DNA of 62,491 nt, counting the filler. It is 4 parts of 4 records of this genome, joined end to end, with 100 filler letters (N's around TTAATTAATTAA, not from the genome) between each part and the next. Parts side by side here need not be neighbours in the genome. Positions count along the whole stretch, not along the records: positions 21,659 to 48,611 come from SRR31156797_12392; 3 more parts are not named here. One strand, written 5' to 3'. A model generated the notes under the pieces. That model did no database searches and had not been told where the DNA came from. It worked only from the letters and a program-made list of their open reading frames with translations. The translations under genes were made by a program, and so were the position numbers. This document shows, in pieces, positions 34,608-53,054 of the stretch (the first letter of the stretch is position 1; the number at the start of each line of letters is the position of its first letter).

Positions 34608-35488
34608 TGATCTATGAATATGCTGTTTCACCTGAGCTGTTTTCAAATGCATCTTTTATCCAAATACTCCAAAATACTTTCGGTCAGGAGGAAGGTCGAC
34701 TTTTTTCAGACATTCCTAAAAAGAAATGGCAGCAACAGGTATTTGAGGTTATCAGGAAATCTGAGAATAAACCTGTCATGCGAAAATCAATGTCCAATGC
34801 TGCAAAAAAGCTGTTTAAGAAGGCGATTTACAAACGTAACACCCATCCTGTCTATGATGACAGCATTGAATGGCTGCAATTTGTTATTGATGTTCATAAT
34901 GAAAGGCCTTTCAGAGCTATCATTGTAGATCAATATGACGGTGAGGAAGAGTATGTTCTGGTGAATGATCTGGGTTTGGCCGATCAGCCTTTATGGTCGG
35001 TGCCGAATGATGTCTCCGTGGATAGAAAGCATAAAGTAATGGTGCAGCAGATAAAGTGCATGCTGGATTGCGCCTCTGAAATTATTTTGGTTGACAGGAA
35101 TTTTAAACCGGACACACAGCGTTTTCAAAATGTGTTAGCAGAAATCATGTCGCTGCTTTCAGCAAGAGCTCACGGACCAAGAATTGGGAAGATTGTTTAT
35201 CATACAAGTGACATGGTAACTGTTGGCAAGTTAGAGGCTGATTGTTTAAGATGGATAAAAACAAGCATTCCACCTGGTATGAAGTTGGAGGTTGTCGTCT
35301 GGCCGAAAGAGAATCTGCATGATCGATTTGTTTTAACAAATATTGGTGGCGTTGTTTTTGGGCAAGGGCTTGATGAACAACTCGGATATGGCCCTGATAA
35401 AATTTTAATCACCCGTCTTTCTGATGACACCTATAAAGAATGGTGGTCTGCGTGTCGGAAAAAGACTGCTGATTTCACGATAAGTTGA
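34607..35488 (+). CDS. Hypothetical protein with PLD-like/MIT_C HDR motif, coupled to the ATPase
   Basis: TAATG overlap with the ATPase stop; IILVDRNF and LHDRFVLT...GQGLD. Confidence 0.55.
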   Translation: MIYEYAVSPELFSNASFIQILQNTFGQEEGRLFSDIPKKKWQQQVFEVIRKSENKPVMRKSMSNAAKKLFKKAIYKRNTHPVYDDSIEWLQFVIDVHNERPFRAIIVDQYDGEEEYVLVNDLGLADQPLWSVPNDVSVDRKHKVMVQQIKCMLDCASEIILVDRNFKPDTQRFQNVLAEIMSLLSARAHGPRIGKIVYHTSDMVTVGKLEADCLRWIKTSIPPGMKLEVVVWPKENLHDRFVLTNIGGVVFGQGLDEQLGYGPDKILITRLSDDTYKEWWSACRKKTADFTIS

Positions 35489-35659
35489 CCGTAGAAATTG
35501 GCATTGAATAAGAAAATTTATGTTTATATAAGAATCCTTATCTTTGTAACTGATACTCTTTAAAAAAATGAAAATTTTATAATTGGTGTTGTTCTTTATC
35601 TCTCTTATATTCAGCATGTTGTGGTTTTATATTCTCGTATCTTCTAAAATCTAAAAAAA

Positions 35660-35676
35660 TTGGCACACTCCTGGCA
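35660..35676 (+). promoter_or_regulatory. sigma54 -24/-12 promoter upstream of DUF2188 gene
   Basis: TTGGCACACTCCTGGCA gives GG-N10-GC; a weak IHF-like site lies at 35609-35621. Confidence 0.65.
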
Positions 35677-35720
35677 ATACTTCCTTTCAGTAAATAACTT
35701 ACGAAAGGAGGTGATTGGAA

Positions 35721-35942
35721 ATGGGCAAGAATCAGCACGTAGTTCCCCACGGAGATCAATGGGCCGTGACGGGTGAAGGAAACTCCAAGGCGACTTCTTT
35801 GCACGGCACCCAGCAGGAGGCCATTGATGCCGGAAGGCAGATTGCACAGAATCAGCAGAGCGAGCTTCTCATCCATGGCCAGAATGGTCAGATAAGAGAA
35901 AAAAACTCTTATGGCAACGACCCATTCCCGCCTAAAGGGTAG
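35721..35942 (+). CDS. DUF2188 family small protein
   Basis: QHVVPHGDQWAV..EG...TQQEAI...ELLIHG.NGQIRE.NSYGNDP; AAGGAGGTG SD. Confidence 0.88.
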   Translation: MGKNQHVVPHGDQWAVTGEGNSKATSLHGTQQEAIDAGRQIAQNQQSELLIHGQNGQIREKNSYGNDPFPPKG

Positions 35943-35948
35943 GAACGG

Positions 35949-35991
35949 AATACACCAAAGGGAGGCCTGAATTATCCCTTTGGTGTATTTT
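35949..35991 (+). terminator. Intrinsic terminator after DUF2188
   Basis: Perfect 15-bp stem AATACACCAAAGGGA / TCCCTTTGGTGTATT ending in a short T run. Confidence 0.75.
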
Positions 35992-36270
35992 CAACCGGTT
36001 GGCACAACAAGGCTGACTTGGAGGTTTTATAGCCTTTAATGCAGCGGTCAGATCACAGATGTAAATGTTCTGAGAAATGTTGACATAGGTGGTTTAACTT
36101 CATAGTATCCGCGGTGGTAAAAAGAAGGTTCGATGTCTGCATCCTCCCGCATTCTACAGCGGGTTCATGCCGAAGCCGTGGCATACGATCTAATGGTAAT
36201 TCTAATTTCTTTGAGGGTGTCTTTTTCAATCACATCAAATGAAATTTCATTCAAGTATAAAGGATTCAAA

Positions 36271-36939
36271 ATGAAAAAATTTGCTGCTAAAACAGCCCGG
36301 CCTATTCCTGTAATAATTCTTGCGGATACCAGCGGAAGCATGAGCGTTGATGGAAAGATTGACGCCATGAATCAGGCGCTCAGGGATCTCATTGACACCT
36401 TTTCAGGTGAAAGCCGGCTGAACGCAGAAATTCAATTGTCTGTCATTACATTCGGCGGAGATGGTGCAAAAGAGCACCTGTCCCTGACCAGTGCCCACTC
36501 TATTTCCGGGTTTTCAGATTTGCAGGCCCATGGAGCGACGCCCATGGGCAGTGCCTTTAGAATTGCCAAAGAGCTGATCGAAGATAAGGAAAAAATTCCT
36601 TCAAGGGCCTACCGCCCGGTGATTGTACTGGTGTCTGACGGTTATCCCAACGATGACTGGCAAAGTGCTTTTTCTGCACTCTGCGGCTCCGAGCGGGCAC
36701 AGAAAGCGACCCGGATGGCCATGGCCATCGGCAGTGATGCAGACGAGAACATGCTCAAAGATTTTATCAATGATCTTGAAACCCCTGTTTTCAGGGCCAA
36801 CGGAGCAAGGGATATCATTCGGTTTTTCCGGGCGGTGAGCATGAGTGTCACCAGCCGTTCGCGCAGCTCGGCTCCCAATGAGCCGATCCAGAGCGCATAT
36901 GAGGAAATTCCCGATGATGAATTGGATCTGGATTTCTAA
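36271..36939 (+). CDS. terY: TerY-like vWA domain protein (TerY-P triad)
   Basis: MIDAS motif DTSGSMS, GATPMG, LVSDGYPND. ATG 36271. Confidence 0.88.
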   Translation: MKKFAAKTARPIPVIILADTSGSMSVDGKIDAMNQALRDLIDTFSGESRLNAEIQLSVITFGGDGAKEHLSLTSAHSISGFSDLQAHGATPMGSAFRIAKELIEDKEKIPSRAYRPVIVLVSDGYPNDDWQSAFSALCGSERAQKATRMAMAIGSDADENMLKDFINDLETPVFRANGARDIIRFFRAVSMSVTSRSRSSAPNEPIQSAYEEIPDDELDLDF

Positions 36940-37632
36940 ATGGGAATACGGATTTTTTCTGCATCTGTAATGGGGGCAGGGCATATCGCTAACAATACCC
37001 CCAACCAGGATGCGGTGTTTACCCGGCAATGGGAACATGGCTGGCTGGCAGTGGTCAGTGACGGCATGGGGTCCCGGAAAAGATCGGATATCGGTTCTCA
37101 ATGCGTGTGCAGGGCTGCGTTTCATGTCTTGAAAAACGCTTCTTTCGATACGCCGGACCGGGATCTTGTCCTTGTGATTTATAAACGCTGGCTGGATGAG
37201 TTGGGCTCTGTCAAACCCAATGATGCCGTGGCCACCTGTTTGATTGCCTGGGGTCAGAATTCCGGGCAAACACGATTATTCCAGCTCGGTGACGGTGCCC
37301 TTATGTACCAGGCGCAGGAACATGTGCAACTGTCCTGCAGACAAGGTGCTGCTTTTTCCAATGAAACAACTGGGCTTGGGATCTCACGAAGATACAGTGA
37401 CTGGATCACCAAGGCTGTTTCCCTGGGGAAGAAAGGCCAGGGGCTGGCGCTGATGACGGATGGTATCAGTGAAGATCTGGTTCTGGCCGATCAATTTGTT
37501 CCTTATCTGATTCAGACAATGAAGAGAATGAGCCGCAGGCGAGCAAAAAAATGGCTCCGGACACAATTGGAAAATTGGCCGACGCCGGGACACACAGACG
37601 ATAAAACCTTAGCATTAATCTTTTGGAAATAA
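36940..37632 (+). CDS. PP2C-family phosphatase (TerY-P triad)
   Basis: GAGH...PNQDA, VVSDGMGS, LGDG, LMTDG, DDKT. Confidence 0.9.
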   Translation: MGIRIFSASVMGAGHIANNTPNQDAVFTRQWEHGWLAVVSDGMGSRKRSDIGSQCVCRAAFHVLKNASFDTPDRDLVLVIYKRWLDELGSVKPNDAVATCLIAWGQNSGQTRLFQLGDGALMYQAQEHVQLSCRQGAAFSNETTGLGISRRYSDWITKAVSLGKKGQGLALMTDGISEDLVLADQFVPYLIQTMKRMSRRRAKKWLRTQLENWPTPGHTDDKTLALIFWK

Positions 37633-37634
37633 AT

Positions 37635-39089
37635 ATGATACTTGCAACTGAAAACGCTGAAAATAAAGAGCCCCAAAAGAAAAAAACGGGAAACCGGAAG
37701 GTCCAGGATAGAAAAGGCACTGTCTATACTCTGACCGGCAAGGTAGGAGAAGGGGGACAGGGAATGGTTTGCTCCACAGATCTTCCCGGGGTGCTGATAA
37801 AAATTCAGACAGAGAAAAATCCATCAAAAAGGAAAGAATGGGAACGGCATATCAAATGGCTGATGCGCCAGGACTTTACCGGCTTGAAGATCGCCCGGCC
37901 TTTGGAGGTCGTTGCCCGGCCCCCAAGTGTAAACGGTTATATCATGGAACTGATGGACGGGCTTGAATCTTTGGAAAAATCCCTGGAGAGATCTTTCATT
38001 CAATTGTCAGAGAATGAAGATGAACCCCTCCAAGGCTATCAAAGTACCGGCGGCTTAAAACGAAGGCTTATGCTTTTGGCTGAGCTGGCCCGGACACTGG
38101 CAGGACTCCATGCTAAGGGGCTTGCCTATGGTGATCTGTCACCGGCAAATATTTTTGTTTCCCAGTCTGTAGAACATCACCAGCTCTGGCTCATCGACTG
38201 CGATAATATCTGCATCAGTGAGCGGGCAGGTCATGGAGATGTACATACCCTCGGATATGCTGCTCCGGAGATCGCCCGGGGGGAATCCGGAGTAAATATG
38301 TCTACGGACTGCTGGAGTTTTGCTGTGATTGCAATGAAGTTTCTTTCCCATACTCATCCTTTTGAATCCGGTATTGCTGTGGAGGATGGGGACCCTGATG
38401 TTGAGATGAAACGGGCTTTGGAAGGGGAATTGCCCTGGATATATGATGAAGATGATGAGAGTAATGAATGGGCCGGCTCCGGGCTGCCCCTTGATATTTT
38501 GACCACAAAACAGATCCGGGGATTGTTTAATCAGTGTTTTGGGCCTGGAAAAGATGATTTGTCAGCCCGTCCGTCAATGGCTGCATGGGCCGATGCCCTG
38601 GATGCCGCATGTGCCTTGATTCATGGATGCTGTAATCCTGACTGTGGGATATCCTTTATCTTTAATTCAGATCAAACATGCCCGTTTTGCGAGACCGTAC
38701 AACCCAAGCAGAATAGTGTGTTGCTGAAGCATTATCTTATTAATGATACTGGCAGCCCTGATGAGCCCCGCTGGATTAAGACCAATGAGGTTCAAGTAAT
38801 CAATGCCGGGCAACGCGTAGATTTTCATATCGGTGCTGTGGGCACAGCGCTTTACCGTGAATCCCCGAAGATTTGCACCCTTGAGCTGGGTCAAGACGGT
38901 CTGATTATAAAACCCACAAAGCATGGGCTTCTCTCTCTTCAAAAGACTGGGGATAAAAAACTTCTTCAAATTAAAAGACAGCATACTTTGAAATCGGATA
39001 CCCGTTCGGGTAATGCCTTTGGCCTCCATTTGCGCATGGAGGATCATTCCGGTTTTCTTTCTCACCCTGTCTGGACATTCATCTGGTAG
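37635..39089 (+). CDS. Ser/Thr kinase with Zn ribbon (TerY-P triad)
   Basis: GEGGQG, YGDLSPANIF, LIDCDN, GYAAPE, DCWSFAV; C.NPDC...CPFC. Confidence 0.9.
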   Translation: MILATENAENKEPQKKKTGNRKVQDRKGTVYTLTGKVGEGGQGMVCSTDLPGVLIKIQTEKNPSKRKEWERHIKWLMRQDFTGLKIARPLEVVARPPSVNGYIMELMDGLESLEKSLERSFIQLSENEDEPLQGYQSTGGLKRRLMLLAELARTLAGLHAKGLAYGDLSPANIFVSQSVEHHQLWLIDCDNICISERAGHGDVHTLGYAAPEIARGESGVNMSTDCWSFAVIAMKFLSHTHPFESGIAVEDGDPDVEMKRALEGELPWIYDEDDESNEWAGSGLPLDILTTKQIRGLFNQCFGPGKDDLSARPSMAAWADALDAACALIHGCCNPDCGISFIFNSDQTCPFCETVQPKQNSVLLKHYLINDTGSPDEPRWIKTNEVQVINAGQRVDFHIGAVGTALYRESPKICTLELGQDGLIIKPTKHGLLSLQKTGDKKLLQIKRQHTLKSDTRSGNAFGLHLRMEDHSGFLSHPVWTFIW

Positions 39090-39097
39090 GGGGGCTT

Positions 39098-42000
39098 ATG
39101 AAACTTGGAAAATTTATTGGCTTGTCGAAACAGACTGTCCGTCTGAAAGATTTGGGTGGGGAGCCCATTGAAAAAGATGTCTGGAATATTGGGGAAGAGG
39201 TAACTCTCATAGAGGATTCCGGTAATTTTTACCTCCAACAGGGCGATGTGATTGCATCGGTCACACCTGCCGAAGCCAGCCAGAATTTGTCTTTAAAACT
39301 GGGCCGGGATCAGGCGCTCTGGTCGCTTACCTCGATTCGGAAAGATCAGTTTTTTGTCCGGAGTGTGGATATCTCGGATTCGCCCATCATAATTAACCTT
39401 GATATTGGCGTCAGTGATGCAATTGCACGGCAGCTTTACGGATCATCTCAAATAAAAGAGGACTCCATAGATGCCGCCCGGCGCTGGCTTGAAGACGAGT
39501 TTATCCTGGAAGGCAGTGAACAGCCCCGTGTTTTTGTTTCTTCATATGCCGGCAATAGAACAGATGCCCTCGAGATCCGCGGCCGTGAATGGGTCGCTTC
39601 ATTAAGTGAAATTGACCATTATTGGCAGATGAGTGGATTGACTCGGCGTCGGCACAGCAATGCCGGCCTGCAGGTCTTTCAGGGTGACATACGGTTTGTT
39701 GACGTCTCGGTGGCCGGCCAGTTGACCAATCCTGTTCATCGCCATGCCTTGGATGAAGCGATCCGCAGTCATGGTGGGTACATGGATCTGTGGGAAAAAT
39801 ACAGCAACATGGAGTGGGAATTCAGCTTGAATGACGCCCGACAGCTTGGAGCATTGAGATTTAAACTGGTTGAAAAGGGACGTAACTCTGACGAATGGGA
39901 GTTCTTGGTGGAACCTGCTGCCGGAAAAGATTTTTCCACAAAGCTGCATGAATTAAAGAAACAGGGATCCGGCAACGCCGGCAGCGGGTTACTGGAAGTC
40001 ATGCCATACATTCCGGATTGGTTGGATGGCAGTAAAAGCATTGAAGACACCGGATTGGGGGGGGATAAAGGTAAACCCTGGCTATGCGAATGGGTAAAGA
40101 TAGATAATGATATTGTCACCCTTCGAATAGATGCTCAGCGGTATAAAAATCCGTGTAAAAAAGGCATTATCTGCATGTCCATGCATGGGAACAGGAAGAT
40201 AAGGGAAAGGCGGCATCAGGCGATTACGAGTATTCGACAGCGCAGTAATCCCATGCCACAGCTTCATTATCTGCTTGAAGGGGTGGCGACACCATTTGAA
40301 GGGCCAAAAAAGCTTCGAAGATTAAGTGCCGCGGCTCGTAAAACCTTTAAAGGCGAACCGACCCCCAAACAGTTTCGAGCCATAAAAATTGCTTTTGAGA
40401 CCCCGGATGTGGCTATTATTATTGGCCCGCCAGGCACGGGCAAAACCCAGGTGATCACTGCATTACAAAAGGAACAGGCCCTGGCCATGAAAGGGGTGGA
40501 CATACAGCACCAGGTCCTTCTTTCAAGTTTCCAGCATGATGCCGTGGACAATGTTACAGCCAGGACCCGGGTGTTTGGGCTACCGGCCATAAAAATCGGG
40601 GGCAAAAATCGAAAAAATGGAGAACAGGACACCGATCCCATCGAAGATTGGTGCAAAGAAAAATCTGATATTCTGTCCGTCAGCCTGCAGGAAAAAATAG
40701 ACCGGGAACCGGTTTTCGGCGTACTCAAAGAATTAAAAAAAGAGATGACTACTCTGCGGGTGACCCGGCCGGATTATTCTGAGAAAAATGAACTTTTGTC
40801 CCGGATAAAAAAGTGCCTTGAAGAATTGTCTGCGTTTCAAATCCGCCTGTCTCCGGAGGTGGATCAATCCTGGAATGATTTTCTACTTGAACACCATAGT
40901 GATTCAGACCGCGAACAGGCCGGCCAGGGAGAAGAAAGGCTGGTTAAACGGGTTCTGGCCTTGAGAACAACACGGGTTGCCTTTCTGGATGACGGACCGG
41001 AACAATGTCTGCGTCTGCTTGATTGGGCTCAACGCGGGAACGCAATAATTGAATCTTCTGAATTGGACCTTTTGAATCATTGTTCCCGGGAATCGTCTGT
41101 AAGTGATACCCAGCTTAAAAAGCTTGGTAAACTTAAAGCAGCAATGCTGGACCGTTTGACCCCTGATTATCGGCCCCGGCATATCCGGACGGTTCTACCA
41201 AAGGAAGCCTGTGAGATGTTGGATTCTATTCAGGAGGAGATTGAACAGCAGATTAAAAGTTCCCGTAACCTTGGTTACTTGCTTGTGCTTGACGATTATC
41301 TTAAGACCTTAAATACGTCTCCTAACGCAATTAAAAGAGCCGCTTTGGAATACACCAGCGTTTTAGGTGCGACCTGTCAGCAGGCAGCTTCCCGTAGGAT
41401 AACTGATTTAAAGGATGTTGAGCATCAGAGCTCTATCAGTTTTGACACTGTGATTGTGGATGAGGCGGCCAGGGCCAATCCTTTGGACCTGATGGTGCCC
41501 ATGGCCATGGCAAAACGCCGTATTGTCCTGGTTGGGGATCATCGCCAGTTGCCCCATTTGCTGGAGCCTAAAGTGGAAGATGAACTGGCAGAAAAATTTG
41601 AATTTGAAACGACACAGCTGAAAATGCTCAAGATCAGCCTGTTTCAAAGGATGATGGAAATTTTAAAGGAGATGGAAGCAAAGCCGAATCAGCCAAAACG
41701 TGTGGTGATGCTGGATAAACAATTTCGTATGCATTCTGTTTTGGGACGGTTTGTCAGCAGATTGTTTTATGAGCCTTATGGACTTTCGGAAGTACAGCCG
41801 GGGTTTGATGATGATTCAAGATTTGCTCATAAGGTGCCTGGATATGAAGGAAAGGTCTGCGGCTGGATTGATATACCCGGAAGGGAAGGCAAGCATCACC
41901 GGAGAAACGGCAGTTTGGTTCGGGATGTTGAAGCTTTCCGGATTGCAAAAGAAGCTCGGACAATCATGGACGCCTGTCCAGATTTGAGTGTGGGTGTCAT

Positions 42001-42421
42001 TACTTTTTACCGGGCCCAGGTGGATAGCATAATGGAGGCGATGGTTAAAGAAGAGCTCACTGAAAAGGGGCCGGACGGGGGCGGAATACGGATTAAGCTC
42101 AATGGTGAGGATAATACCCGGGAGCGCCTTAGGGTCGGGACCGTTGATGCGTTTCAGGGAAAGGAGTTTGATGTGGTCCTGCTTTCCCTGGTCCGAACCA
42201 GTAATGGGCTTGTGGATGAAACAGATGATGACGCACTCACAAAGGCTTATGGCTTTCTACGGTTGGACAACCGGCTGAATGTCGCCATGAGCCGCCAGCA
42301 GCGCTTGCTGATTATGGTTGGGGATGCTGAAATGGCGACAGTAACGGGGGCCGAGGCGGCAGTACCTGCATTGCCTGCATTCTACCAGTTGTGCGGAGGA
42401 CAAGATGGAACAATACGCTAA
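39098..42421 (+). CDS. SF1 Upf1/DNA2-like helicase (CoCoNuT CnuH-like)
   Basis: GPPGTGKT, VDEAAR, VGDHRQLP, QFRMH, VITFYRAQ, TVDAFQGKE, RLNVAMSR. Confidence 0.88.
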   Translation: MKLGKFIGLSKQTVRLKDLGGEPIEKDVWNIGEEVTLIEDSGNFYLQQGDVIASVTPAEASQNLSLKLGRDQALWSLTSIRKDQFFVRSVDISDSPIIINLDIGVSDAIARQLYGSSQIKEDSIDAARRWLEDEFILEGSEQPRVFVSSYAGNRTDALEIRGREWVASLSEIDHYWQMSGLTRRRHSNAGLQVFQGDIRFVDVSVAGQLTNPVHRHALDEAIRSHGGYMDLWEKYSNMEWEFSLNDARQLGALRFKLVEKGRNSDEWEFLVEPAAGKDFSTKLHELKKQGSGNAGSGLLEVMPYIPDWLDGSKSIEDTGLGGDKGKPWLCEWVKIDNDIVTLRIDAQRYKNPCKKGIICMSMHGNRKIRERRHQAITSIRQRSNPMPQLHYLLEGVATPFEGPKKLRRLSAAARKTFKGEPTPKQFRAIKIAFETPDVAIIIGPPGTGKTQVITALQKEQALAMKGVDIQHQVLLSSFQHDAVDNVTARTRVFGLPAIKIGGKNRKNGEQDTDPIEDWCKEKSDILSVSLQEKIDREPVFGVLKELKKEMTTLRVTRPDYSEKNELLSRIKKCLEELSAFQIRLSPEVDQSWNDFLLEHHSDSDREQAGQGEERLVKRVLALRTTRVAFLDDGPEQCLRLLDWAQRGNAIIESSELDLLNHCSRESSVSDTQLKKLGKLKAAMLDRLTPDYRPRHIRTVLPKEACEMLDSIQEEIEQQIKSSRNLGYLLVLDDYLKTLNTSPNAIKRAALEYTSVLGATCQQAASRRITDLKDVEHQSSISFDTVIVDEAARANPLDLMVPMAMAKRRIVLVGDHRQLPHLLEPKVEDELAEKFEFETTQLKMLKISLFQRMMEILKEMEAKPNQPKRVVMLDKQFRMHSVLGRFVSRLFYEPYGLSEVQPGFDDDSRFAHKVPGYEGKVCGWIDIPGREGKHHRRNGSLVRDVEAFRIAKEARTIMDACPDLSVGVITFYRAQVDSIMEAMVKEELTEKGPDGGGIRIKLNGEDNTRERLRVGTVDAFQGKEFDVVLLSLVRTSNGLVDETDDDALTKAYGFLRLDNRLNVAMSRQQRLLIMVGDAEMATVTGAEAAVPALPAFYQLCGGQDGTIR

Positions 42422-43886
42422 TCGTTATCTTAATTTTTTAGAAGGTAGGAAGTCCCCATATAAAAGCCAGTCTTTTCTCTGGCCAGTCCGGATATGGCAG
42501 GTTTTGGCACCTGGTGTGGATAGTTCTGTGTTAAATATTTTCCAGCGGACTATTCTCGGGTTGATCCAGGCACACCAGACAGATCCAGCAGATATGGCAG
42601 AGTGGTTGGGGGTTGATAAAGAGTTGGTTCAATACATCCTTGCCACCCAACTGATGGCTAATGACTGGGTTGATTCCCGGGGACGTCTAACTCGTCAAGG
42701 TGTGGAGAGATTGGAGCAAGATGTAGAGGCGAGACAGGATCTAAAACCGGGATATGTATTTCAAGATGCATTCAGCGGTAATCTATGGCCCCGTGTCGTA
42801 GATTATCTGCCATATGTTGAACCGTCTTCGACTTCAGGAAACGGGCGACTTAGGTTTAGGCAACGCCGGGATAGTGATTGGGAGGAAGAACCGTTTATCA
42901 TCAAAGGTGGCGGTTTTGATTCGAGGCGACCGGAAATTAATGCGCTGAGGGAATCCATTCAGTTGGGTAATAATGCCATCCACAATCAAACGGTTAGTGA
43001 TGAACTATGGATGGGTGAGCTTCGTGAATATCAAATAGATGAAATCGAACTCATAGATCCGGAACCAATACCAGCATATGTCTTTTGCTGGGCAATCTCA
43101 GACCCCGATCATTCCTGGACAATTTCAGATCCTTGCGCCATTACCCGTTCCGCTGATTGGATGCGAAAAGATGTATATTCCCTGGCGCGGAAGAATACTG
43201 GATTTGCCGGTTACTTAAGCGCGTATCTGGGCGAACCTGATGATAAGGAAACCTGGGAAGAGATGAATGCCAGGCTGGAAGCTGAAGTTGAATTTGATGT
43301 GTATGCACATTATCCCTCTGCTAAGAATGTTCCGAATCTTACAGCCTATTTGGGGGCGCTGTTACGCCGTAAATATAAGTTGGAAGAGCTCGAAGAGGGC
43401 CGTGAAAATTTTGAGGATTGTGATGATATAGTGACCCAAGCTCAAAAGGTTTTGGAGTGTTGTTGTCAATGGATGCTTACGGAATGGCCCTGCAATCCAG
43501 CTCGAATTAATAAAAAATGGGGAAATGAGGACCTGTTTACAGCCTTTGATTTGATTTTTAGGGGCAGTCTTTCAGTGGATGAAGTCAAAGCGTTCTCCAA
43601 TAAAATAAGGGCGTGGGAGCTAAAGAACGCTGCAAGAGATAAGCAAAAAGCACGTCAATCCTTACGTGCTCTTTTTGCTACAGTTATTCTTTCCATAGAA
43701 GAGCATCCGGATCATCCGGTTCTTAATTGTCCTTCAAGTTCGTTTTTTGCAGGTATCGCACAGTTGGCTGACAACCGCAATCCAATCGCACATGCTTCCG
43801 GCAAGTTTACTAAAAAACAGAATGCGCTTTATTGGGCTGATTTTTCAATACAATGGGTTGAGTTATTAACAAGGAGTCTGAAGTAA
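42405..43886 (+). CDS. wHTH plus C-terminal HEPN putative RNase effector (CnuE-like)
   Basis: N-terminal HTH (DPADMAEWLGVDKELVQYIL); C-terminal RxxxxH motif DNRNPIAHA; overlaps the helicase gene. Confidence 0.68.
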   Translation: MEQYANRYLNFLEGRKSPYKSQSFLWPVRIWQVLAPGVDSSVLNIFQRTILGLIQAHQTDPADMAEWLGVDKELVQYILATQLMANDWVDSRGRLTRQGVERLEQDVEARQDLKPGYVFQDAFSGNLWPRVVDYLPYVEPSSTSGNGRLRFRQRRDSDWEEEPFIIKGGGFDSRRPEINALRESIQLGNNAIHNQTVSDELWMGELREYQIDEIELIDPEPIPAYVFCWAISDPDHSWTISDPCAITRSADWMRKDVYSLARKNTGFAGYLSAYLGEPDDKETWEEMNARLEAEVEFDVYAHYPSAKNVPNLTAYLGALLRRKYKLEELEEGRENFEDCDDIVTQAQKVLECCCQWMLTEWPCNPARINKKWGNEDLFTAFDLIFRGSLSVDEVKAFSNKIRAWELKNAARDKQKARQSLRALFATVILSIEEHPDHPVLNCPSSSFFAGIAQLADNRNPIAHASGKFTKKQNALYWADFSIQWVELLTRSLK

Positions 43887-43888
43887 AA

Positions 43889-46456
43889 ATGGGAAAAAAT
43901 AAAAAAAACAAACAGAAAGTAAAAACAAAGAAAGAGTCGGTTAGCCTGCCTAAGAATGAATCTTTAAAAGAGAAAATTACCAAGGCCATGGGCGCGGGCA
44001 ATTTTTTGACTCCTGATTCTAATTTTAAGCCCGGTAGTATTGATATCAGCTCACTTCAAAAGGATGAAAGCCGGCTACCGAAAGCCGAAAAGTTATTGGA
44101 TGAAATTATTCAATTGCATGATGACCTGAAATTGAAGTCCGACGAGCTTGATAAGTCAAAGGAAGGCATAGAGGCCTTGAATAAGACCCTTAGCCAGGAG
44201 AAAGAAGAGCTTTCTATTCAGAAGAAGAAAATAGGAGAGATCAAAATTGAGTTGGCTGAGAAAAAGGAACAATTAGCTCAGACGGAATCACATCTTATAG
44301 AATGGGAGGATGACCTGGGTGAGCGGGAAGCCGAAGCAAAGGCCGGATTCTTGTCGGAAAAACAGAAGGCCTGTTTTGAAAAGAGAAATGCCCTGGATTC
44401 TCTTGATAAAGAACATAAAGAAAGGGCTGAAAAAAGATGGGCTGAAATTTTTGAAAGAGAAAAGCAGCTTGATGACCGGGATATGGAATTAGCCAGCCGG
44501 GAAGCCAGCGCCAATGCAGGGTTCATTGATGAAAAGAAAAAAGTTTTAGGAGAGTTCCAAAATCAGCTTGATGATAAGCACGAAGAATTAAAAGAACTCA
44601 GGCTGGCAATGGACACTGAAAAAGCCAAGCATGATGAGAAACTTGCCAAAGATAAGGGACTGCTCCTCCAAGAGATAAATAAGATTCGAGATGAGCATCA
44701 GGAAAAATTGGACAAGGAGAGGGCGTTGGTGGAAACCGAACGGTGCAGGCTTGAGGTTCGGCAAAAAGAGCTTGAACGGCACACACACCGCCTTGAAGTT
44801 CGAAAAAGTTCCCAGAGTGATTGGGAGCAAAGTGTAAAGGATGATCTCGAAGCAGAATTCAATTCTCAAATTATCAGCCTTGAAACTCAGCTGGAGCAGC
44901 TGAAAAACTATCGCAATAAAGACCTGGAGGATATTAAGGAACTTAATCAGGAATTGATCCAGTACGCCGATTTGAAAAAATCTCTGGACGGAGCCGGAAT
45001 AGAAGATGTTCAGGTTAAACTTGAGGAAGACCGCAAAGAGATAAAAAAATTAAAGGCTGAGCTTGCTGCCGCTCCCCGGGATGATTTGGAAGAAGAAAAC
45101 GACAGGCTTCTGGAGCAGATAGATGATCTGTCCGAGGAAAAGATTGAGCTTAAAACTGAGCTTTGGGAAGCAAAAAGCGAATTGGATAAAAACAGGTTAA
45201 GTGTGATGGCCAAACATAACCTGGTGAAAGAGAAAAAAGTGCTGGAACTCCATAATAAGACATTAGATTCAGCAATTGAAAATCTTCAAACGCAGGTGGA
45301 GGATCTTGTTGAAAAGCAGCAGAGCAGCAACGCATTTCCGGCATTGTGCAAGCTTGATAAAGATCATAGTCGAGATGGTGTGAATCTCCAGGTTGTTCCG
45401 AACCTCAAAGCGTTCGCCGAACAGATGCGAATGGGAATGGCCTGTATTTATCCCGAAACGCCGCTTTATTACCGCAGTGAAGATGTGCGCTTGTTCCTTG
45501 GCGGCTTGGCTATGAGCAATCTTCATATCCTTCATGGTATGTCTGGTACAGGTAAAACGAGCCTTGCCAAAGCGTTTACAAAGGTCGTGGGCGGAGAGTG
45601 TACTGACATTGCCGTTCAGGCCGGATGGCGGGATAAGGATGATCTTCTTGGCCATTTTAATGCGTTCGAGAAAAAATTCTATGAACGGGAGGCGCTTCAG
45701 GCTATTTACAAAGCACAACTGCCAGAGTTCAAAAACCGAATAAATGTGGTTTTATTGGACGAAATGAACCTTTCCCGGCCTGAGCAATACTTTGCGGAGT
45801 TTCTGTCTGCCATGGAAAAACAGCCCGATCAACGTGAGATTGTTCTGCTTGAAAGTGAACTTCAAAATGCGCCGAGGTTATTCAAGGACGGGCGTAAAAT
45901 AAAAATTCCTGAGAATGTATGGTTCATCGGGACAGCGAATCATGATGAAACAACCAATGAATTTGCAGATAAAACCTATGACCGTGCCCATGTAATGGAG
46001 CTGGGCCGTAGTGACGAAAAAATTGGCACGGATGATTATGAGCAGACAACATATCGTTTCTCATCCCTGAAAGACTTATTCAGGTCGGCCAGCCTAAAGC
46101 ATTGTAAAAAGGTTGGGTCAATTTTCAAAGAGTTTGAAGAAAGTATTTTGGCGGAGGTTCTGGAAGGAAATTTCACTGTTCGTTGGGGGAACAGGCTCCG
46201 GGAGCATGCAAAAAGATTTATCCCGGTTGTTATAGAAGCCGGAGGTTCTTTTGAGGAAGGGCTGGACCACTTGCTGGCATCAAAGGTGTTTAGAGATGGA
46301 AAGGTTACCGGACGGTTTGATACCGTTTTAAAAGATCTTGATGACGTCGAGGAGGCATTGCTCGAAACATGGGGGGGGATTGGATTAAAAAATGATCCAG
46401 CCAAAGCTTTGGCCTGTATAAAGCAAGACAAAAGGAGGATGGAGCGTGGCGCATGA
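43889..46456 (+). CDS. McrB-like AAA+ GTPase with about 400-aa N-terminal coiled coil (CnuB-like)
   Basis: GMSGTGKT, LLDEMNLSRPEQYFAEFLS, McrB-type GTANHDE; long K/E/L heptad region. Confidence 0.85.
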   Translation: MGKNKKNKQKVKTKKESVSLPKNESLKEKITKAMGAGNFLTPDSNFKPGSIDISSLQKDESRLPKAEKLLDEIIQLHDDLKLKSDELDKSKEGIEALNKTLSQEKEELSIQKKKIGEIKIELAEKKEQLAQTESHLIEWEDDLGEREAEAKAGFLSEKQKACFEKRNALDSLDKEHKERAEKRWAEIFEREKQLDDRDMELASREASANAGFIDEKKKVLGEFQNQLDDKHEELKELRLAMDTEKAKHDEKLAKDKGLLLQEINKIRDEHQEKLDKERALVETERCRLEVRQKELERHTHRLEVRKSSQSDWEQSVKDDLEAEFNSQIISLETQLEQLKNYRNKDLEDIKELNQELIQYADLKKSLDGAGIEDVQVKLEEDRKEIKKLKAELAAAPRDDLEEENDRLLEQIDDLSEEKIELKTELWEAKSELDKNRLSVMAKHNLVKEKKVLELHNKTLDSAIENLQTQVEDLVEKQQSSNAFPALCKLDKDHSRDGVNLQVVPNLKAFAEQMRMGMACIYPETPLYYRSEDVRLFLGGLAMSNLHILHGMSGTGKTSLAKAFTKVVGGECTDIAVQAGWRDKDDLLGHFNAFEKKFYEREALQAIYKAQLPEFKNRINVVLLDEMNLSRPEQYFAEFLSAMEKQPDQREIVLLESELQNAPRLFKDGRKIKIPENVWFIGTANHDETTNEFADKTYDRAHVMELGRSDEKIGTDDYEQTTYRFSSLKDLFRSASLKHCKKVGSIFKEFEESILAEVLEGNFTVRWGNRLREHAKRFIPVVIEAGGSFEEGLDHLLASKVFRDGKVTGRFDTVLKDLDDVEEALLETWGGIGLKNDPAKALACIKQDKRRMERGA

Positions 46457-48342
46457 TTTTGTATGATCGATTGACAGATACCAGGATTCCAGTTGATGAT
46501 TTACAGGATCATGTATTGCCCGAAAGATACCAATTGACCTGCGGGGCATTAATTAATGGGCATACCCATGCATCTGCCGGTGATGTCCTGGTGACCGATG
46601 GCACCTATAAACTATCATTTAATGGCCACAACCTTCCTTGCTGTGAAACGGTTGCGGGCAAGGAGGAACTGCCAGAATTTGAAATTGTTGTGAAAGCGCT
46701 TTTTCAAATAAATAAGGCTTTAATTGAAATTGATAAGGAGGGGGACGGTCAATTACCCTCTCCGCTTGTTCCCAGCCAGGTGTTTGATGATGATGGTGAT
46801 TTAAATCAACTGGAGGTCCTCCTTGGTAAGGTGCTGGCGAAGGGGCACCTTCATGAAATAAATCGCCGACCCCGTATTGATATGCGTTATGATGACATGG
46901 TGTTGCCTGTCAGTCGAGCTAAGCGTCTGGCTCCTTCTGCGCACCGGCATCTTGCTGCTCAATCCGAATGCTGGCAGAGAAGGACCTTGACCGGAATTCA
47001 GCCGAAAAAAATTATGGGCCAGATTAGTGAGGATGAATATGCACTCTATGAAAATAAGGTGTATGCACGGCTGTTGGATCGGCTTGATCGCCTATTAAAT
47101 AAAAGGTTGCAGGAGTTGAACGAGCTGCTTAGCAATTTGGATGATGTTCTCGAATTGGAGAGCGCAGACACTTTGAATTATCGATTTAGAAACAGTCTTT
47201 TTGGGTTGTGGGGAGAAACATTTACCTCCATGGAAGCCGTTTCTCTCACTCGGGATAAAATTGAAACAGTTCAAACCCGCCTTAAAGAATATTCAAAATC
47301 CATAAGGGGGTTAATCCAGAGCGATTTGTATAATCGGGTGCCTCGGAATGCCCAGATTGCAACCAAAATTCAGCTGACAAACATTCTTGCCCATGACCAG
47401 CATTACCGATTTATAGTCAAATTATGGAATTCGTCCCTTGAGGCCAATGATAAGAATTCATTACCGGAGGAAAAGTATAAAAAAAATGCGGCATTACAAC
47501 AGGCCTACATTAATTATTGCAAGTTATTGATCGTAAGATCTTTAGGCGAACTGGGGTATGATTCAAAACGCAAAGGGATAAATGGCTGTAAGTTCACATC
47601 TATGGGGCATGAATTAATTGTCACCTTAAAAAATACTAACTGGGAGATAGAGAATAAAAGAACTGGCCAGAAATTGGTTCTTGTCCCAATTGCCTCCTGG
47701 AATTCAACAGGGTTAGAAACAATACAAGAGGGGAATAAACTTATCATTCCGTGTTGTTTAAATAGCCAGGGTGACCCATTCGTGTCCCCGTCCGATTGGA
47801 TAGCCGGGAAATATACTGGCCCGCTTGTTCTTTCTCCCATGGATTTTTATGTCCAAGAGCGATTGGTTGTTATTCTTAAAAGTTGGATCCTGCTCAAGCC
47901 GTTTAGTGAATATGGTAAATTGATCACAAAAATACCAGGAGCGGTCATGCCTCAATTCAAGAAGCTAAAAGAGTGCAATGTGGAGGGAGAGTATTCAGTA
48001 CGCTTGCTGCAGCCAATATCTAAAAATGCATATGAACTTATATTGAATGATCTGAAGGCGGCTAATGCCAATATAAGCCATGAGCAGTTTGAAACAGCCA
48101 TGGCGTTTATGGATCAAATTTCAAGATGTCCTTTTTGTCAAGAAAAGGCAAGTTTGACACCATGGCAAGGTCGGCAGGCATTTAAAGCCATTTGCCCCCG
48201 CAGTGATTGTCAGCTTGAGTGGGGTATTTATTATGGCGACAGCGAGAAACCTGACGTGAGCTTTTCTACAAAGGATCAGAAGAAGGGCAGGTTCAAGACC
48301 AATGGCCGTTGGTTTGATCAATATGAGCTGATACGATCTTAG
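46453..48342 (+). CDS. McrC/DUF2357-like protein with C-terminal Zn finger (CnuCD-like)
   Basis: ATGA overlap with the McrB-like gene; LPVSRAKR and YENKVYARLL; C-terminal CPFC...CPRSDC. Confidence 0.7.
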   Translation: MILYDRLTDTRIPVDDLQDHVLPERYQLTCGALINGHTHASAGDVLVTDGTYKLSFNGHNLPCCETVAGKEELPEFEIVVKALFQINKALIEIDKEGDGQLPSPLVPSQVFDDDGDLNQLEVLLGKVLAKGHLHEINRRPRIDMRYDDMVLPVSRAKRLAPSAHRHLAAQSECWQRRTLTGIQPKKIMGQISEDEYALYENKVYARLLDRLDRLLNKRLQELNELLSNLDDVLELESADTLNYRFRNSLFGLWGETFTSMEAVSLTRDKIETVQTRLKEYSKSIRGLIQSDLYNRVPRNAQIATKIQLTNILAHDQHYRFIVKLWNSSLEANDKNSLPEEKYKKNAALQQAYINYCKLLIVRSLGELGYDSKRKGINGCKFTSMGHELIVTLKNTNWEIENKRTGQKLVLVPIASWNSTGLETIQEGNKLIIPCCLNSQGDPFVSPSDWIAGKYTGPLVLSPMDFYVQERLVVILKSWILLKPFSEYGKLITKIPGAVMPQFKKLKECNVEGEYSVRLLQPISKNAYELILNDLKAANANISHEQFETAMAFMDQISRCPFCQEKASLTPWQGRQAFKAICPRSDCQLEWGIYYGDSEKPDVSFSTKDQKKGRFKTNGRWFDQYELIRS

Positions 48343-48444
48343 GAAATTGAATGGGGCAACGAGTTCATTTTGAAAATTTAATATTGGGTTCGTTGTTTTT
48401 GGGAGGTTACTTTTCACAAACCATCAAATTGTGTAACCTATAGA

Positions 48445-48537
48445 ATGATGGACATATGATGGACAAAATCCTCAAAACACAAATAAAGCCTTTCAAGGAA
48501 AATTTCTGAAAGGCTTTGTTATCAGTGGCGGGCTGAC
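48445..48537. mobile_element. Possible island attachment end: direct repeats, hairpin, degenerate tRNA 3' remnant
   Basis: ATGATGGACA twice (48445-54, 48456-65); hairpin AAAGCCTTTCA/TGAAAGGCTTT (48485-48517); TGGCGGGCTGAC (48526-37), whose reverse complement ends CCGCCA. Confidence 0.35.
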
Positions 48538-48611
48538 TATAAATCGACCATAGATTGACGGAGTAATAGTCTGTTTTTTTAGGGAGTTTTCAAAATTCTG
48601 TGTCATAGGTT

Positions 48612-48711
48612 NNNNNNNNNNNNNNNNNNNNNNNNNNNNNNNNNNNNNNNNNNNNTTAATTAATTAANNNNNNNNNNNNNNNNNNNNNNNNNNNNNNNNN
48701 NNNNNNNNNNN
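48612..48711. other. Artificial contig linker
   Basis: N run with TTAATTAATTAA, 100 nt. Confidence 0.97.
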
Positions 48712-48775
48712 TTGCCGCATAAAACTTTAACGAAGTATTGTAAGTTTATATGAGGAAAATAATCAGTCGAATAGG

Positions 48776-49498
48776 ATGCTTTATAGCTATCATTATTTGC
48801 ATCAGATTGATAAAGCTAAAGGGAATTTTAGTAAAGCATATAAAGATTTAATAGAATATGTCAATTTAATTGATAAAACTTCATCTAATGAAAAGGTTCG
48901 TATGTCTAAGGTGTTGGAGATTAATAATAAGGTTGATTTAATGAAGAGCCAATTGGTACAGTTAAAAGCGGAGAAAAAAGCCAGTGAATTTATGTTAACG
49001 CTTGTTATTGTGATCACTATTGGAATTTTGGGTGGAATAGGGATTTATATCTATCTGTACCAAAAAGAAAAAAGGGCTAAAGTTGAAGAGCTAAATAAGG
49101 AATTTCATAATTTGTTAATTGGTATTGGAGAGAAGCAATTATTGGAACACCGTTTAAGTAAAAGCTCTAAGGATAAAGAAATACAATCGGAACAAGTGAA
49201 AGTATTTCCTGTAAATGTAGAAGAGAGTGACTTGGGAGATAGTTTTGACAGTTGCTATATGGAAACTATTAATTTATTTACAGATGCATTTCCTCAATTA
49301 ACAAAAACGGAGGTGAGGTATGCTGTAATGTTGTGTTTAAAGTTACCGATGGAAGTAATTTCAAAAGTGCAACATGTTCAAATAGCTTCAATTAGAAAAG
49401 CCAAACAAAGAATTCGAATTAAATTGGATGTCGAAGGCAGTTTGGAAGATTATTTACAAGAATTTAGAGAAAGATCTATCTCAAGTTTGGCTGTTTAG
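48776..49498 (+). CDS. C-terminal part of TPR-TM-HTH (LuxR-like) membrane regulator, 5' truncated
   Basis: TPR-like helix (YLHQIDKAKGNFSKAY), one TM, C-terminal FPQLTKTEVRYAVMLCL...IRKAKQRIRIKL typical of Bacteroidota regulators. A possible 1-nt frameshift lies near 48745-47. Confidence 0.75.
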   Translation: MLYSYHYLHQIDKAKGNFSKAYKDLIEYVNLIDKTSSNEKVRMSKVLEINNKVDLMKSQLVQLKAEKKASEFMLTLVIVITIGILGGIGIYIYLYQKEKRAKVEELNKEFHNLLIGIGEKQLLEHRLSKSSKDKEIQSEQVKVFPVNVEESDLGDSFDSCYMETINLFTDAFPQLTKTEVRYAVMLCLKLPMEVISKVQHVQIASIRKAKQRIRIKLDVEGSLEDYLQEFRERSISSLAV

Positions 49499-49638
49499 GC
49501 TAACACAATAAAGGTTATTTTTTTATTTGTATGTACGAAATCGATCATTTTTGTACATTGAAACTTTTAGAGTAAAAAAACATTGTTTTTTTTCTTTAAA
49601 AGATAGGTTTGTATTGATTTGAATATGAGGTAAAAGTG

Positions 49639-49705
49639 TTTTGTCACGCTTTTGTCACGCTTCAAATTCTTCTTTTTATTTGCACCCCTTCATATTTGTG
49701 ACAAA
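49639..49705. promoter_or_regulatory. Tandem 11-bp direct repeat plus inverted copy, candidate operator
   Basis: TTTTGTCACGC at 49639-49 and 49650-60; inverted GTGACAAA at 49698-705. Confidence 0.6.
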
Positions 49706-49725
49706 CAACTAAAACAACGTTTGTC

Positions 49726-49944
49726 ATGAAAAATTTATTAAGATTTTTATTCGTATTTGTAATTATATCTTTTTCTACAATAATTTCAGCTATAGAAAAG
49801 GAGGATCCAATTGTAATTGTTAGAGGGGAGGTCGCTAAAGAAGATCCAATTGTAATTGTGAGAAATAGTCTTTCAAAAGAGGATCCAATCGTTATTGTAA
49901 GATCAGGGGTGTCGAAAGAAGATCCAATTGTAATAGTTAGATAA
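49726..49944 (+). CDS. Secreted multi-core peptide precursor: signal peptide plus 4 x KEDPIVIVR
   Basis: 22-aa Sec signal ending ISA; cores at 49798, 49837, 49876 and 49915 (39-nt period) differ only at synonymous positions. Confidence 0.85.
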   Translation: MKNLLRFLFVFVIISFSTIISAIEKEDPIVIVRGEVAKEDPIVIVRNSLSKEDPIVIVRSGVSKEDPIVIVR

Positions 49945-49953
49945 ATATCAAAA

Positions 49954-50319
49954 ATGTCCTGCACATCAATACAGAGGGAGGTAATTGAAGTGGATATAAG
50001 TAGGTTTATAACCATTGATGATGTAGTGTCTAATGTACAGGAATTTTTAGAATTCAATCATAAATATGCTTCACAATACTTGTTGTTGGTAAATGCTACA
50101 AATTGTAGAACCAATATTGTTATAAAGGATTTGGATTACTTACAATCATTGAATACGGAGCTTGCCGAAAAATTTTCCTTGTTAAAGGTGGCGGTTATTG
50201 TAAATGATCCTGTGTATACAGCAATATGTATGGTTTACCAACAACTTATTAAAATGAAATACTATCATTTTAGAGTTTTTTCAACAAAGCTGGCTGCACG
50301 AAGGTGGTTGTTAAGTTAG
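49954..50319 (+). CDS. SpoIIAA-like / STAS-SEC14-like small protein
   Basis: LLLVNAT...KVAVIVNDP...FRVFSTKLAARRWL; starts 9 nt after the peptide gene. Confidence 0.6.
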   Translation: MSCTSIQREVIEVDISRFITIDDVVSNVQEFLEFNHKYASQYLLLVNATNCRTNIVIKDLDYLQSLNTELAEKFSLLKVAVIVNDPVYTAICMVYQQLIKMKYYHFRVFSTKLAARRWLLS

Positions 50320-50483
50320 GTTAATTATGGAGAATGTTATTTTAAATAAAAACAGACGTATGCCTTTTGGAGGAACAATACGTTGGTTTGAATATAGGTT
50401 GCTTAAGTGCTTGTAAAAAGTTTGAATAAGAATTCTTTTTTCCCAAATCTTAAATTCTTTAATGCCAAATTTTTAACAAGATT

Positions 50484-50523
50484 AAATCCGTTACATACTA
50501 AACGTAGTATGTAGCGGATTTTT
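50484..50523 (+). terminator. Intrinsic terminator
   Basis: AAATCCGTTACATACTA-aacg-TAGTATGTAGCGGATTT followed by TT. Confidence 0.7.
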
Positions 50524-50627
50524 ATATTAATTAAGTGAACATATCATTTTTCTAAACTTGTGTTTTTGTTATCTTTATTGTATAATTAAGTGGCTGTTTA
50601 ATCGTCATAAGGCTTCAATGTAAATGT

Positions 50628-51077: not shown

Positions 51078-51083
51078 AATTCT

Positions 51084-52997: not shown

Positions 52998-53054
52998 AGT
53001 TTAAAAATCGTTATTAGGTAAAATGTCTAAATGTAAAGTCTGCTTTCAATTCAT

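Follow-up and report, generated by a model that had tools for sequence, protein, structure and literature searches.

What kind of system is formed by seven adjoining genes at 36271-48342 of a 62,491-nucleotide stretch of DNA (the window), and how might its expression be arranged? An initial annotation had read the cluster as a TerY-P triad joined to a CoCoNuT-type (coiled-coil nuclease tandem) McrBC with a UPF1-like helicase and a winged helix-turn-helix (wHTH)-HEPN protein, lying downstream of a CARF activator. Nearly all of the membership tests run came out in favour of this description, and orthologues of the genes were found to be catalogued as Type II. Sequences and predicted structures place the cluster among the Type II CoCoNuTs that carry a TerY-P triad. 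The locus is a further example of a catalogued type and holds no new architecture. CoCoNuTs, a variant of the McrBC family, are predicted to act against phages on RNA.

Gene content and classification of the cluster

The seven open reading frames (ORFs), with starts picked by agreement with relatives, are the following.

36271-36939, + strand: TerY-like VWA protein with intact metal ion-dependent adhesion site (MIDAS), 222 aa; Pfam VWA_2 8.7e-13; DTSGS at residue 19
36940-37632, + strand: PP2C phosphatase, 230 aa; Pfam PP2C_2 4e-47
37635-39089, + strand: Ser/Thr kinase with zinc ribbon and a C-terminal stretch of ~130 aa; Pfam Pkinase 5.8e-13
39098-42421, + strand: CnuH, UPF1-like superfamily 1 (SF1) helicase, 1107 aa; Pfam AAA_11 1.4e-29 and AAA_12 9.9e-37; PADLOC MkoA 5.9e-89
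42405-43886, + strand: CnuE, with wHTH, middle domain and one HEPN with RxxxxH, 493 aa; RNPIAH at 458-463
43889-46456, + strand: CnuB, with a long charged helical N-terminus and an McrB-like GTPase of NxD type, 855 aa; Pfam AAA/AAA_5 5e-5
46453-48342, + strand: CnuC, with N-terminal beta domain, DUF2357 helical bundle, nuclease-like domain and zinc ribbon, 629 aa

The genes are co-oriented and successive gaps are 0, +2, +8, -17, +2 and -4 nt, in agreement with the initial annotation, which had them abutting, overlapping or at most 8 nt apart. The gap between the PP2C and kinase genes is +2 from the kinase ATG and -10 from an alternative TTG at 37623, giving a kinase of 484 or 488 aa, respectively. 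The VWA start was set at 36271 because relatives begin at MKKFAAK, and a longer frame from ATG 36133 (268 aa) was rejected. Gaps between -17 and +8 nt suggest that translation of the genes is coupled. Pfam families were matched by the first four proteins and by the sixth, while CnuE and CnuC themselves gave no significant Pfam/NCBIfam match. The same annotation had reported intact catalytic motifs in the phosphatase, kinase, helicase and GTPase and an RxxxxH in the 493-aa protein; the MIDAS, the kinase loops, Walker A and B of the helicase and GTPase and the RxxxxH were all located in the translations.

According to Bell et al. 2024 (eLife, PMC11090510), Type II combines TerY-P, a CnuH with a large helical insertion and a CnuE with wHTH and one RxxxxH HEPN with a CnuB made of a coiled coil and an NxD McrB-like GTPase and a CnuC made of a beta-sandwich, DUF2357, an inactivated PD-(D/E)xK domain and a zinc ribbon. 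In the window, Pfam matches and motifs identify the triad as a VWA protein with MIDAS, a PP2C phosphatase and a zinc-ribbon kinase. The kinase motifs read from the translation are GEGGQG, LIKI, GDLSPAN (166), DCD and APE, followed by CNPDC...CPFC. Bell et al. 2024 label the kinase only STK-ZnR. Its tail after the zinc ribbon (~residues 355-484, 38700-39089) gave no family in a Pfam scan, and going by length the orthologues from Pontibacterium and Desulforapulum have these ~130 residues as well.

Identity to Desulforapulum autotrophicum is 79% for CnuH (HRM2_14770), 76% for CnuE (HRM2_14780) and 75% for CnuC (HRM2_14800). These three proteins fill the CnuH, CnuE and CnuC columns of the 'Type II CoCoNuT' sheet in Supplementary file 3 of PMC11090510, a list that also includes the Pontibacterium locus L001. 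The seven genes recur in identical order in the D. autotrophicum locus HRM2_14740-14800, and both loci have one RxxxxH HEPN, an NxD GTPase with a long helical N-terminus, a zinc-ribbon kinase and a CnuC with a zinc ribbon and without an active nuclease motif. The listed HRM2 row has no RtcR entry, whereas an RtcR-like gene is located 10 kb upstream on the same contig here. In Pontibacterium, classical and CoCoNuT-type McrBC adjoin, as a canonical McrB (AAA_5) and McrC (Pfam McrBC, 1.6e-100) at L001 96-3070 immediately precede the Type II CoCoNuT.

All 4/4 genome loci (L001-L004) have the seven genes in this order and of these sizes, apart from the shortened VWA gene of L004 described below, and so do three of the five metagenome loci (L005, L006 and L008), all of the long ones, L007 and L009 being contigs of ~3 kb. 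The seven genes are also present on a Rhodoferax plasmid, and the syntenic set comprises L001-L004, L005, L006, L008 and L010, with CnuE identity reaching down to 28%. As order and sizes recur across loci, the arrangement is not due to chance.

Type III-A CoCoNuTs share TerY-P, the overall build of CnuH, a wHTH-HEPN CnuE and an NxD CnuB, with a coiled coil that is putative here, with this locus. They are described as having two HEPN domains, the second with RxH, and a CnuC from which the nuclease-like domain and zinc ribbon have disappeared and to which Hsp70-like and HEAT-like parts have been added (PMC11090510). Assignment to Type III-A was ruled out on the single RxxxxH found here and on a CnuC that retains both zinc ribbon and nuclease-like domain and gave no Hsp70 family match in family scans.

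The genes might alternatively be adjacent independent systems in one defence island, namely a stand-alone TerY-P triad, a Mokosh-like CnuH/CnuE pair and a McrBC-like CnuB/CnuC pair. TerY-P-like triads have been reported as stand-alone defence systems (PMC11090510), and the locus resembles Mokosh type I in its Ser/Thr kinase, UPF1-like helicase and downstream nuclease gene. When the PADLOC check proposed in the initial annotation was run, it returned both CnuH (5.9e-89) and the kinase (3.6e-10) as MkoA, although the TerY model gave only a weak match (E 9.5e-4); MkoB matched CnuE weakly (2e-4) in the N-terminal wHTH region (residues 43-153). According to Millman et al. 2022 (10.1101/2022.05.11.491447), Mokosh type I, a kinase-helicase fusion with a nuclease, protects E. 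coli, requires the helicase ATP site and the nuclease site, and functions without McrBC. Its nuclease is of the PLD type, however, and in the window the kinase is a separate gene 8 nt from the helicase, accompanied by VWA and PP2C genes, with a HEPN-like nuclease and a McrBC-like pair following. Mokosh type I membership was ruled out accordingly: kinase and helicase are separate genes, CnuE gave no PLD family match in Pfam/NCBIfam-type scans and its C-terminus is HEPN-like. The short gaps suggestive of translational coupling and the recurrence of all seven genes in one order speak against independence of the parts, and the loss of the CnuC nuclease motif, described below, fits dependence on CnuE. 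We consider independent systems very unlikely and treat the cluster as one Type II CoCoNuT.

The nuclease-type and McrBC-like proteins

UPF1-type helicases move 5'-3' along RNA or single-stranded DNA. CnuH carries the motifs GPPGTGKT (443), DEAA (788) and GDHRQL (813), with Walker A and Walker B 345 residues apart, which corresponds to the large insertion of Type II. Its best matches among solved structures in the PDB are a 5'-3' RNA helicase-like protein, Nam7/UPF1, DNA2 (3.1e-13), SEN1 and SMUBP-2. A Pfam scan of residues 1-421 gave no family, and an alignment spanning 100% of residues 1-420 shows 79% identity to HRM2_14770. For the N-terminus of Type II CnuH, SmpB-like OB and RNase-toxin-like domains are described, and HRM2_14770 is given as SPB-RTL-OB-CoCo-helicase in Supplementary file 3 (PMC11090510).

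The AlphaFold2 model of CnuE is of moderate quality, with a mean predicted local distance difference test score (pLDDT) of 63.7 that rises to 70-89 across residues 300-490. The predicted folds are an elongated N-terminal wHTH and a single helical HEPN-like domain with RxxxxH at the C-terminus. That the C-terminus of the 493-aa protein is a HEPN fold had been posed as a refutable claim; it is supported by the HEPN-like model and by the conserved RxxxxH, as R458, N459 and H463 are retained in 14/14 sequences reaching that point among the 14 detectable relatives. HEPN RxxxxH sites cleave RNA, leaving cyclic-phosphate ends. Foldseek listed only weak Csm6 rows for CnuE (prob 0.47-0.66) and returned no match at E <= 0.001 with either the CnuE or the CnuC model. 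No CnuE relative was found in a phage collection. Separately, within the GNNAIHNQ of CnuE, residues 189-194 (42969-42986) have N189, N190, I192, H193 and N194 invariant in 15/15 sequences down to 38% identity; they are located in the poorly modelled middle of the protein (pLDDT ~30-55), and their conservation exceeds that of the surroundings of the HEPN motif.

McrB hexamers are activated by McrC. The motifs of CnuB are GMSGTGKT (550), LDEMN (623) and NHDE (684). Although phmmer of the full-length protein against the PDB gave nothing at E 0.01, a profile built from the C-terminal 356 residues and four orthologues matched a single PDB protein below E 0.01, namely E. coli McrB (E 0.0014). The alignment brings Walker A, Walker B and signature motif of the two proteins into register, with GTANHDET opposite MNTAD, so that CnuB has NHD where McrB has NTAD, the shortened NxD signature. 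Residues 61-480 consist to 58-72% of E, K, Q, R, D and L in each 60-residue block and contain 2 prolines. A weak match to an SMC coiled-coil region was also obtained (E 0.0056). The initial annotation had singled out the fusion of the coiled coil to the GTPase; such a fusion defines the CnuB of all CoCoNuTs and is no peculiarity of this locus.

CnuC was modelled by AlphaFold2 at a pLDDT of 90.1. Foldseek ranked E. coli McrC first for this model (6hz4_M, E 7e-3, prob 0.84) and listed two more McrC entries. Pfam DUF2357, the N-terminal domain of McrC, was matched by 40/74 aligned CnuC relatives and not by the window protein, whose DUF2357 assignment follows from these matches and from the model. 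In the full-length model seven strands occupy residues 2-63 (pLDDT ~90) and an alpha/beta nuclease-like domain is seen at 370-520. Within residues 360-530 no column of the 74-sequence alignment holds Lys/Arg at >= 70% and no (D/E)xK is conserved; the protein's own E400-x-K402 is shared at E400 by 12/74 and at K402 by 11/74 sequences. The PD-(D/E)xK domain is, going by alignment and model, kept but inactivated. The zinc-ribbon cysteines C559, C562, C581 and C586, in CPFC (559) and CPRSDC (581), are in contrast present in 70, 73, 71 and 73 of the 74 sequences.

The pair resembles E. coli McrBC (PDB 6hz4, 6ut6) in combining an AAA+ GTPase with a DUF2357 partner in the order B then C, and the CnuB profile match and CnuC fold match to McrBC were the best or only ones in the PDB. 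It differs in having NxD rather than NxxD, a coiled-coil-like region of ~420 residues in place of the DNA-reading domain, an unconserved McrC nuclease motif and an added zinc ribbon and N-terminal beta domain. Canonical McrBC membership was ruled out on the NHD in place of NxxD and on the lack of a conserved (D/E)xK.

These likenesses nevertheless raise the question of DNA-directed Type IV restriction, in which CnuB and CnuC would translocate on DNA in the manner of McrBC, CnuH would unwind DNA and the HEPN-like domain would be structural or regulatory. The alignment of CnuB to McrB over Walker A, Walker B and signature motif, the McrC-like CnuC, the DNA2 match of CnuH and the position of the cassette after a Type I restriction-modification (RM) system are all in line with this. 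A nuclease-like domain of CnuC without conserved (D/E)xK or Lys/Arg, the charged helical region that takes the place of the N-terminal DNA-reading domain of McrB, and the RxxxxH of the HEPN-like helical domain as the sole conserved nuclease-type motif among the seven proteins make it unlikely, and action on RNA through CnuH and CnuE is preferred.

Sigma-54 elements and the edges of the cassette

The window consists of four contigs joined by N spacers (1-21558, 21659-48611, 48712-57111 and 57212-62491). Each spacer, at 21559-21658, 48612-48711 and 57112-57211, is composed of 44 N, TTAATTAATTAA and 44 N. As the window is strung together from separate contigs, gene adjacency across the spacers is no real evidence. 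The seven-gene cluster is wholly inside the second contig. Proteins with type IX secretion system (T9SS) tails past 48.6 kb need not be neighbours of the cluster, nor even belong to the same organism, because a contig junction lies between. G+C is 0.32-0.35 in the third contig versus 0.40-0.49 in the second and falls to 0.32 past 48.6 kb; an island border at this fall was rejected, the fall being an effect of the contig junction. The elements found around the cluster are the following.

26727-26741, + strand: perfect sigma-54 -24/-12 consensus TGGCAC-N5-TTGC, 4 nt after the activator gene and before hsdR
35661-35675, + strand: sigma-54-type element TGGCACactccTGGC, one mismatch, 45 nt before the DUF2188 start
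35721-35942, + strand: leader gene, DUF2188, 73 aa; Pfam 2.5e-28; PADLOC candidate PDC-S16 5.2e-40
35947-35991, + strand: 17-bp hairpin with a 3' arm ending in four U, terminator- or attenuator-like, directly after the DUF2188 stop
36080-36108, + strand: sigma-70-like promoter TTGACA-17-TAGTAT, 10/12 matches in a promoter scan, a consensus match only, 162 nt before the VWA gene
48482-48520, + strand: terminator-like hairpin after cnuC, minimum free energy (MFE) -21 kcal/mol, z -4.2

The left edge of the cassette was placed by comparison with the metagenome locus L005, which encodes a CnuE of 94% identity. Window and L005 show no relation before the element at 35661 and are ~90% identical from it onward up to the VWA start; because similarity begins exactly there, 35661-35675 marks the left edge of the shared cassette. 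Similarity spans the end of cnuC and fades ~230 nt beyond the cnuC stop, and the hairpin at 48482-48520 is kept in L005 with changes on both arms. A compact and well-delimited cassette of ~13 kb, 35661-48520, is obtained. In L005 a tRNA-Gln(CTG) is found on the minus strand 180 nt past cnuC (16127-16200), and the window has only a degenerate stretch resembling it at 48514-48575, in which ARAGORN found no tRNA.

An element was accepted if GG and GC were in register with <=2 mismatches. Elements of this type were located <=~60 nt upstream of the small pre-VWA gene in L001 (TGGCACGCTATCTGC), L002 (TGGCATGCTATCTGC), L003 (TGGTACATGTCGTGC) and L008 (TGGCACGCTCTCTGC). In all, 7/8 loci with DNA upstream of VWA have the element (window, L001, L002, L003, L005, L006 and L008), L006 matching L005 in ORF layout and in the positions of the elements and adding no independent variation. 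The locus without it is L004, where two DDE_3 transposase genes occur upstream of the cassette (1316-4492), the region having been replaced by insertion sequence (IS) transposase and the VWA protein cut to 162 aa. As background, 173,829 bp hold 57 such elements, both strands counted, which by our own arithmetic makes ~0.01 per 60-nt target. In a five-way alignment, in which MAFFT misplaced L003, the element forms the one conserved block amid AT-rich divergent spacers. On the Rhodoferax plasmid a one-mismatch element overlies the last codons of a sigma-54 activator gene 194 nt before VWA, with no small gene. Five independent lineages and one plasmid were thereby covered. A second TGGCAC at ~36001 of the window was rejected, its GC being one base out of register and its GG not kept in L005.

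The leader gene is DUF2188 in the window and in L005/L006. Three gammaproteobacterial loci have a DUF4258 gene instead (Pfam E 4e-6 to 6.5e-9 in 3/3 scanned: L001 3323-3709, L002 3475-3810 and L003 3149-3490), and by eye the L008 leader (~3340-3690) has the same HAxxRMSQR...VYRN motifs as the DUF4258 genes. Two unrelated small proteins consequently fill the same slot between the sigma-54 element and the VWA gene. The main text of PMC11090510 has no occurrence of sigma-54 promoter sites or of DUF2188/DUF4258 leader genes, and its supplementary table has no column for a leader gene.

The hairpin directly after the leader gene has an MFE of -26.5 kcal/mol (z -5.1), with 0/200 shuffles as stable, and is kept in L005, as is the sigma-70-like promoter at 36080-36108. 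Rfam gave no match on 35400-36400 at E <= 1, and the 5' leader at 36110-36275 folds no better than shuffles (z 0.53). Tentatively, the CoCoNuT cassette could be viewed as an eight-gene, sigma-54-wired mobile unit, the left edge of which is a -24/-12 promoter with a leader gene. At any site of insertion the unit would then bring along its need for a CARF-type enhancer-binding protein, with the leader protein or a hairpin attenuator as a further control layer between infection signal and HEPN machine. We hold this to be possible rather than probable.

Upstream genes and a joint model

The gene order of the second contig is JetB/JetA, RtcR-like activator, hsdR/M/S, ATPase with partner, DUF2188 and the seven genes. 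The genes upstream of the leader gene are the following.

21659-23714, - strand: JetA (DUF3375, PADLOC 2.4e-210) and JetB (DUF4194, 1.9e-66), Wadjet
25218-26723, + strand: RtcR-like sigma-54 activator (CARF-AAA+-HTH); PADLOC RtcR_PspF2--CARF_AAA_HTH E 2.5e-196, residues 3-500
26757-30155, + strand: hsdR of a Type I RM system; Pfam ResIII/HSDR_N/EcoEI_R_C
30259-31779, + strand: hsdM; Pfam N6_Mtase/HsdM_N
31776-32948, + strand: hsdS; Pfam Methylase_S
32949-34607, + strand: AAA_15/DUF3696 ATPase; Pfam AAA_15/AAA_21/DUF3696; PADLOC NsnB 2.4e-45
34607-35488, + strand: 293-aa ATPase partner, no family assigned; 24% identity (E 2e-20) to the same-position gene in L005

RtcR senses via its CARF domain and activates sigma-54 promoters. 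The activator gave an NCBIfam RtcR match of E 2.2e-103 at 346.9 bits, below the 650-bit cut-off, together with Pfam Sigma54_activat (6.9e-71) and HTH_8. The exact TGGCAC-N5-TTGC match, the sole one in the 62.5-kb window at a chance expectation of 0.16, is situated in the 33-nt gap between the activator stop (26723) and the hsdR start (26757). The activator and its sigma-54 promoter recall the RtcR/RtcBA RNA-repair regulon, in contrast to which the activator here is co-oriented with, and directly before, restriction and CoCoNuT genes. This layout, in which Type I RM comes after an RtcR-like activator, corresponds to the 'superoperons' of PMC11090510, in which an RtcR-like CARF gene precedes Type I RM and other systems and the CoCoNuT comes last.

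An NsnB-like ATPase with a ~300-aa partner immediately precedes the CoCoNuT cassette in the window as well as in L005 (1244-3099), where the flanking DNA is unrelated to that of the window and the ATPase is cut by an IS integrase. A decayed Wadjet, with JetA/JetB and no JetC/D, was rejected as a contig-junction effect: as JetB is cut off where the contig stops, JetC and JetD lie beyond it. The first contig carries, at 17600-20312, an AAA_13 ATPase of 732 aa (PADLOC candidate PDC-S06 7e-247) followed by an overlapping 173-aa gene without known family, and its end (21530-21558) is, by eye, apparently the 3' part of a minus-strand tRNA. The fourth contig has an IS-type DDE_3 transposase and HTH_32/HTH_29 protein at 59480-60611 on the minus strand.

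The RtcR likeness of the activator over its full length and the sigma-54 elements heading both modules could also indicate a function that is not primarily antiviral, either an RNA-damage or stress module under the RtcR-like activator, similar to the Rtc RNA-repair regulon, or a TerY-type metal or tellurite response, as TerY-P triads were first tied to tellurite resistance (PMC11090510). The same-contig neighbours are, however, defence genes (JetA/JetB, Type I RM, NsnB-like ATPase and PDC-S16), and family scans found no RtcA or RtcB genes on the second contig. Relatives moreover lie near McrBC (L001) and IS (L004, L005) and on mobilisable plasmids, as is typical of mobile defence cargo. A non-antiviral role is therefore judged improbable, and the reading as an antiviral CoCoNuT, putatively controlled by the CARF activator, is retained.

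The model that we favour, with moderate confidence, joins these parts. CnuH with its partner CnuE would load on RNA, which the RxxxxH site of the HEPN domain would cut. The GTPase CnuB, with its putative coiled coil, and nuclease-dead CnuC would form a McrBC-like, GTP-driven assembly that positions or scaffolds CnuH and CnuE via coiled coils, and the VWA/PP2C/kinase triad would set the activity state of the machine by phosphorylation. Expression is likely two-tiered, judging from the promoter-like sequences. Right after the CARF activator gene, 10 kb upstream, comes the perfect sigma-54 promoter before the Type I RM genes, and a second, conserved sigma-54-type element with leader gene stands at the head of the CoCoNuT cassette. 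The hairpin and sigma-70-like promoter between leader and VWA gene would permit basal expression, to be boosted from sigma-54 when the CARF activator senses damaged RNA. Domain identities, conserved catalytic motifs, the lost McrC nuclease motif, conserved gene order and conserved promoter-like elements are shown, and the steps of the model are drawn from family biology and Bell et al. 2024. That HEPN cyclic-phosphate products could feed back on the CARF protein is an idea stated in PMC11090510, and the interpretation in the initial annotation thus agrees with a published computational classification and its hypotheses.

Several observations weigh against this model. An RNA target of CnuH is not proven because UPF1-family helicases also act on single-stranded DNA. 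Periodicity of 3.5 residues in CnuB was clear in only 2/19 windows (z 3.4 and 2.2). No convincing activator site is shared by the two sigma-54 elements: the 250-nt stretches preceding them have in common one exact 10-mer (shuffle mean 0.2, max 3) and one 12-mer with 1 mismatch (mean 0.5), and nothing at 14 nt with 2 mismatches. The leader hairpin and sigma-70-like promoter may make expression of the seven genes independent of the sigma-54 element, and since both follow it, the element may drive mainly the leader gene, with regulated or partial read-through. In L002 the leader ends 14 nt before VWA, which favours a single transcript there. Finally, a full-text literature search of limited coverage turned up the computational paper and works citing it but no bench study of a CoCoNuT, in accordance with the earlier remark that the mechanism is experimentally uncharacterised.

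What goes beyond the paper of Bell et al. is modest, namely the mapping of sigma-54 elements and leader gene at the cassette edge. The perfect sigma-54 consensus after the activator gene and the contig-junction reading of the G+C drop are further additions. The CoCoNuT defence family is widespread and its predicted target is RNA; the cassette described here is accompanied by its presumed activator on the same contig and by explicit promoter positions. Functional sigma-54 elements, should they prove to be such, would directly support the proposal in print that both DNA restriction and the CoCoNuT are switched on by an RtcR-like CARF sensor. The CoCoNuT module would in that case be wired to the CARF signal separately, and not only via read-through of a long operon.

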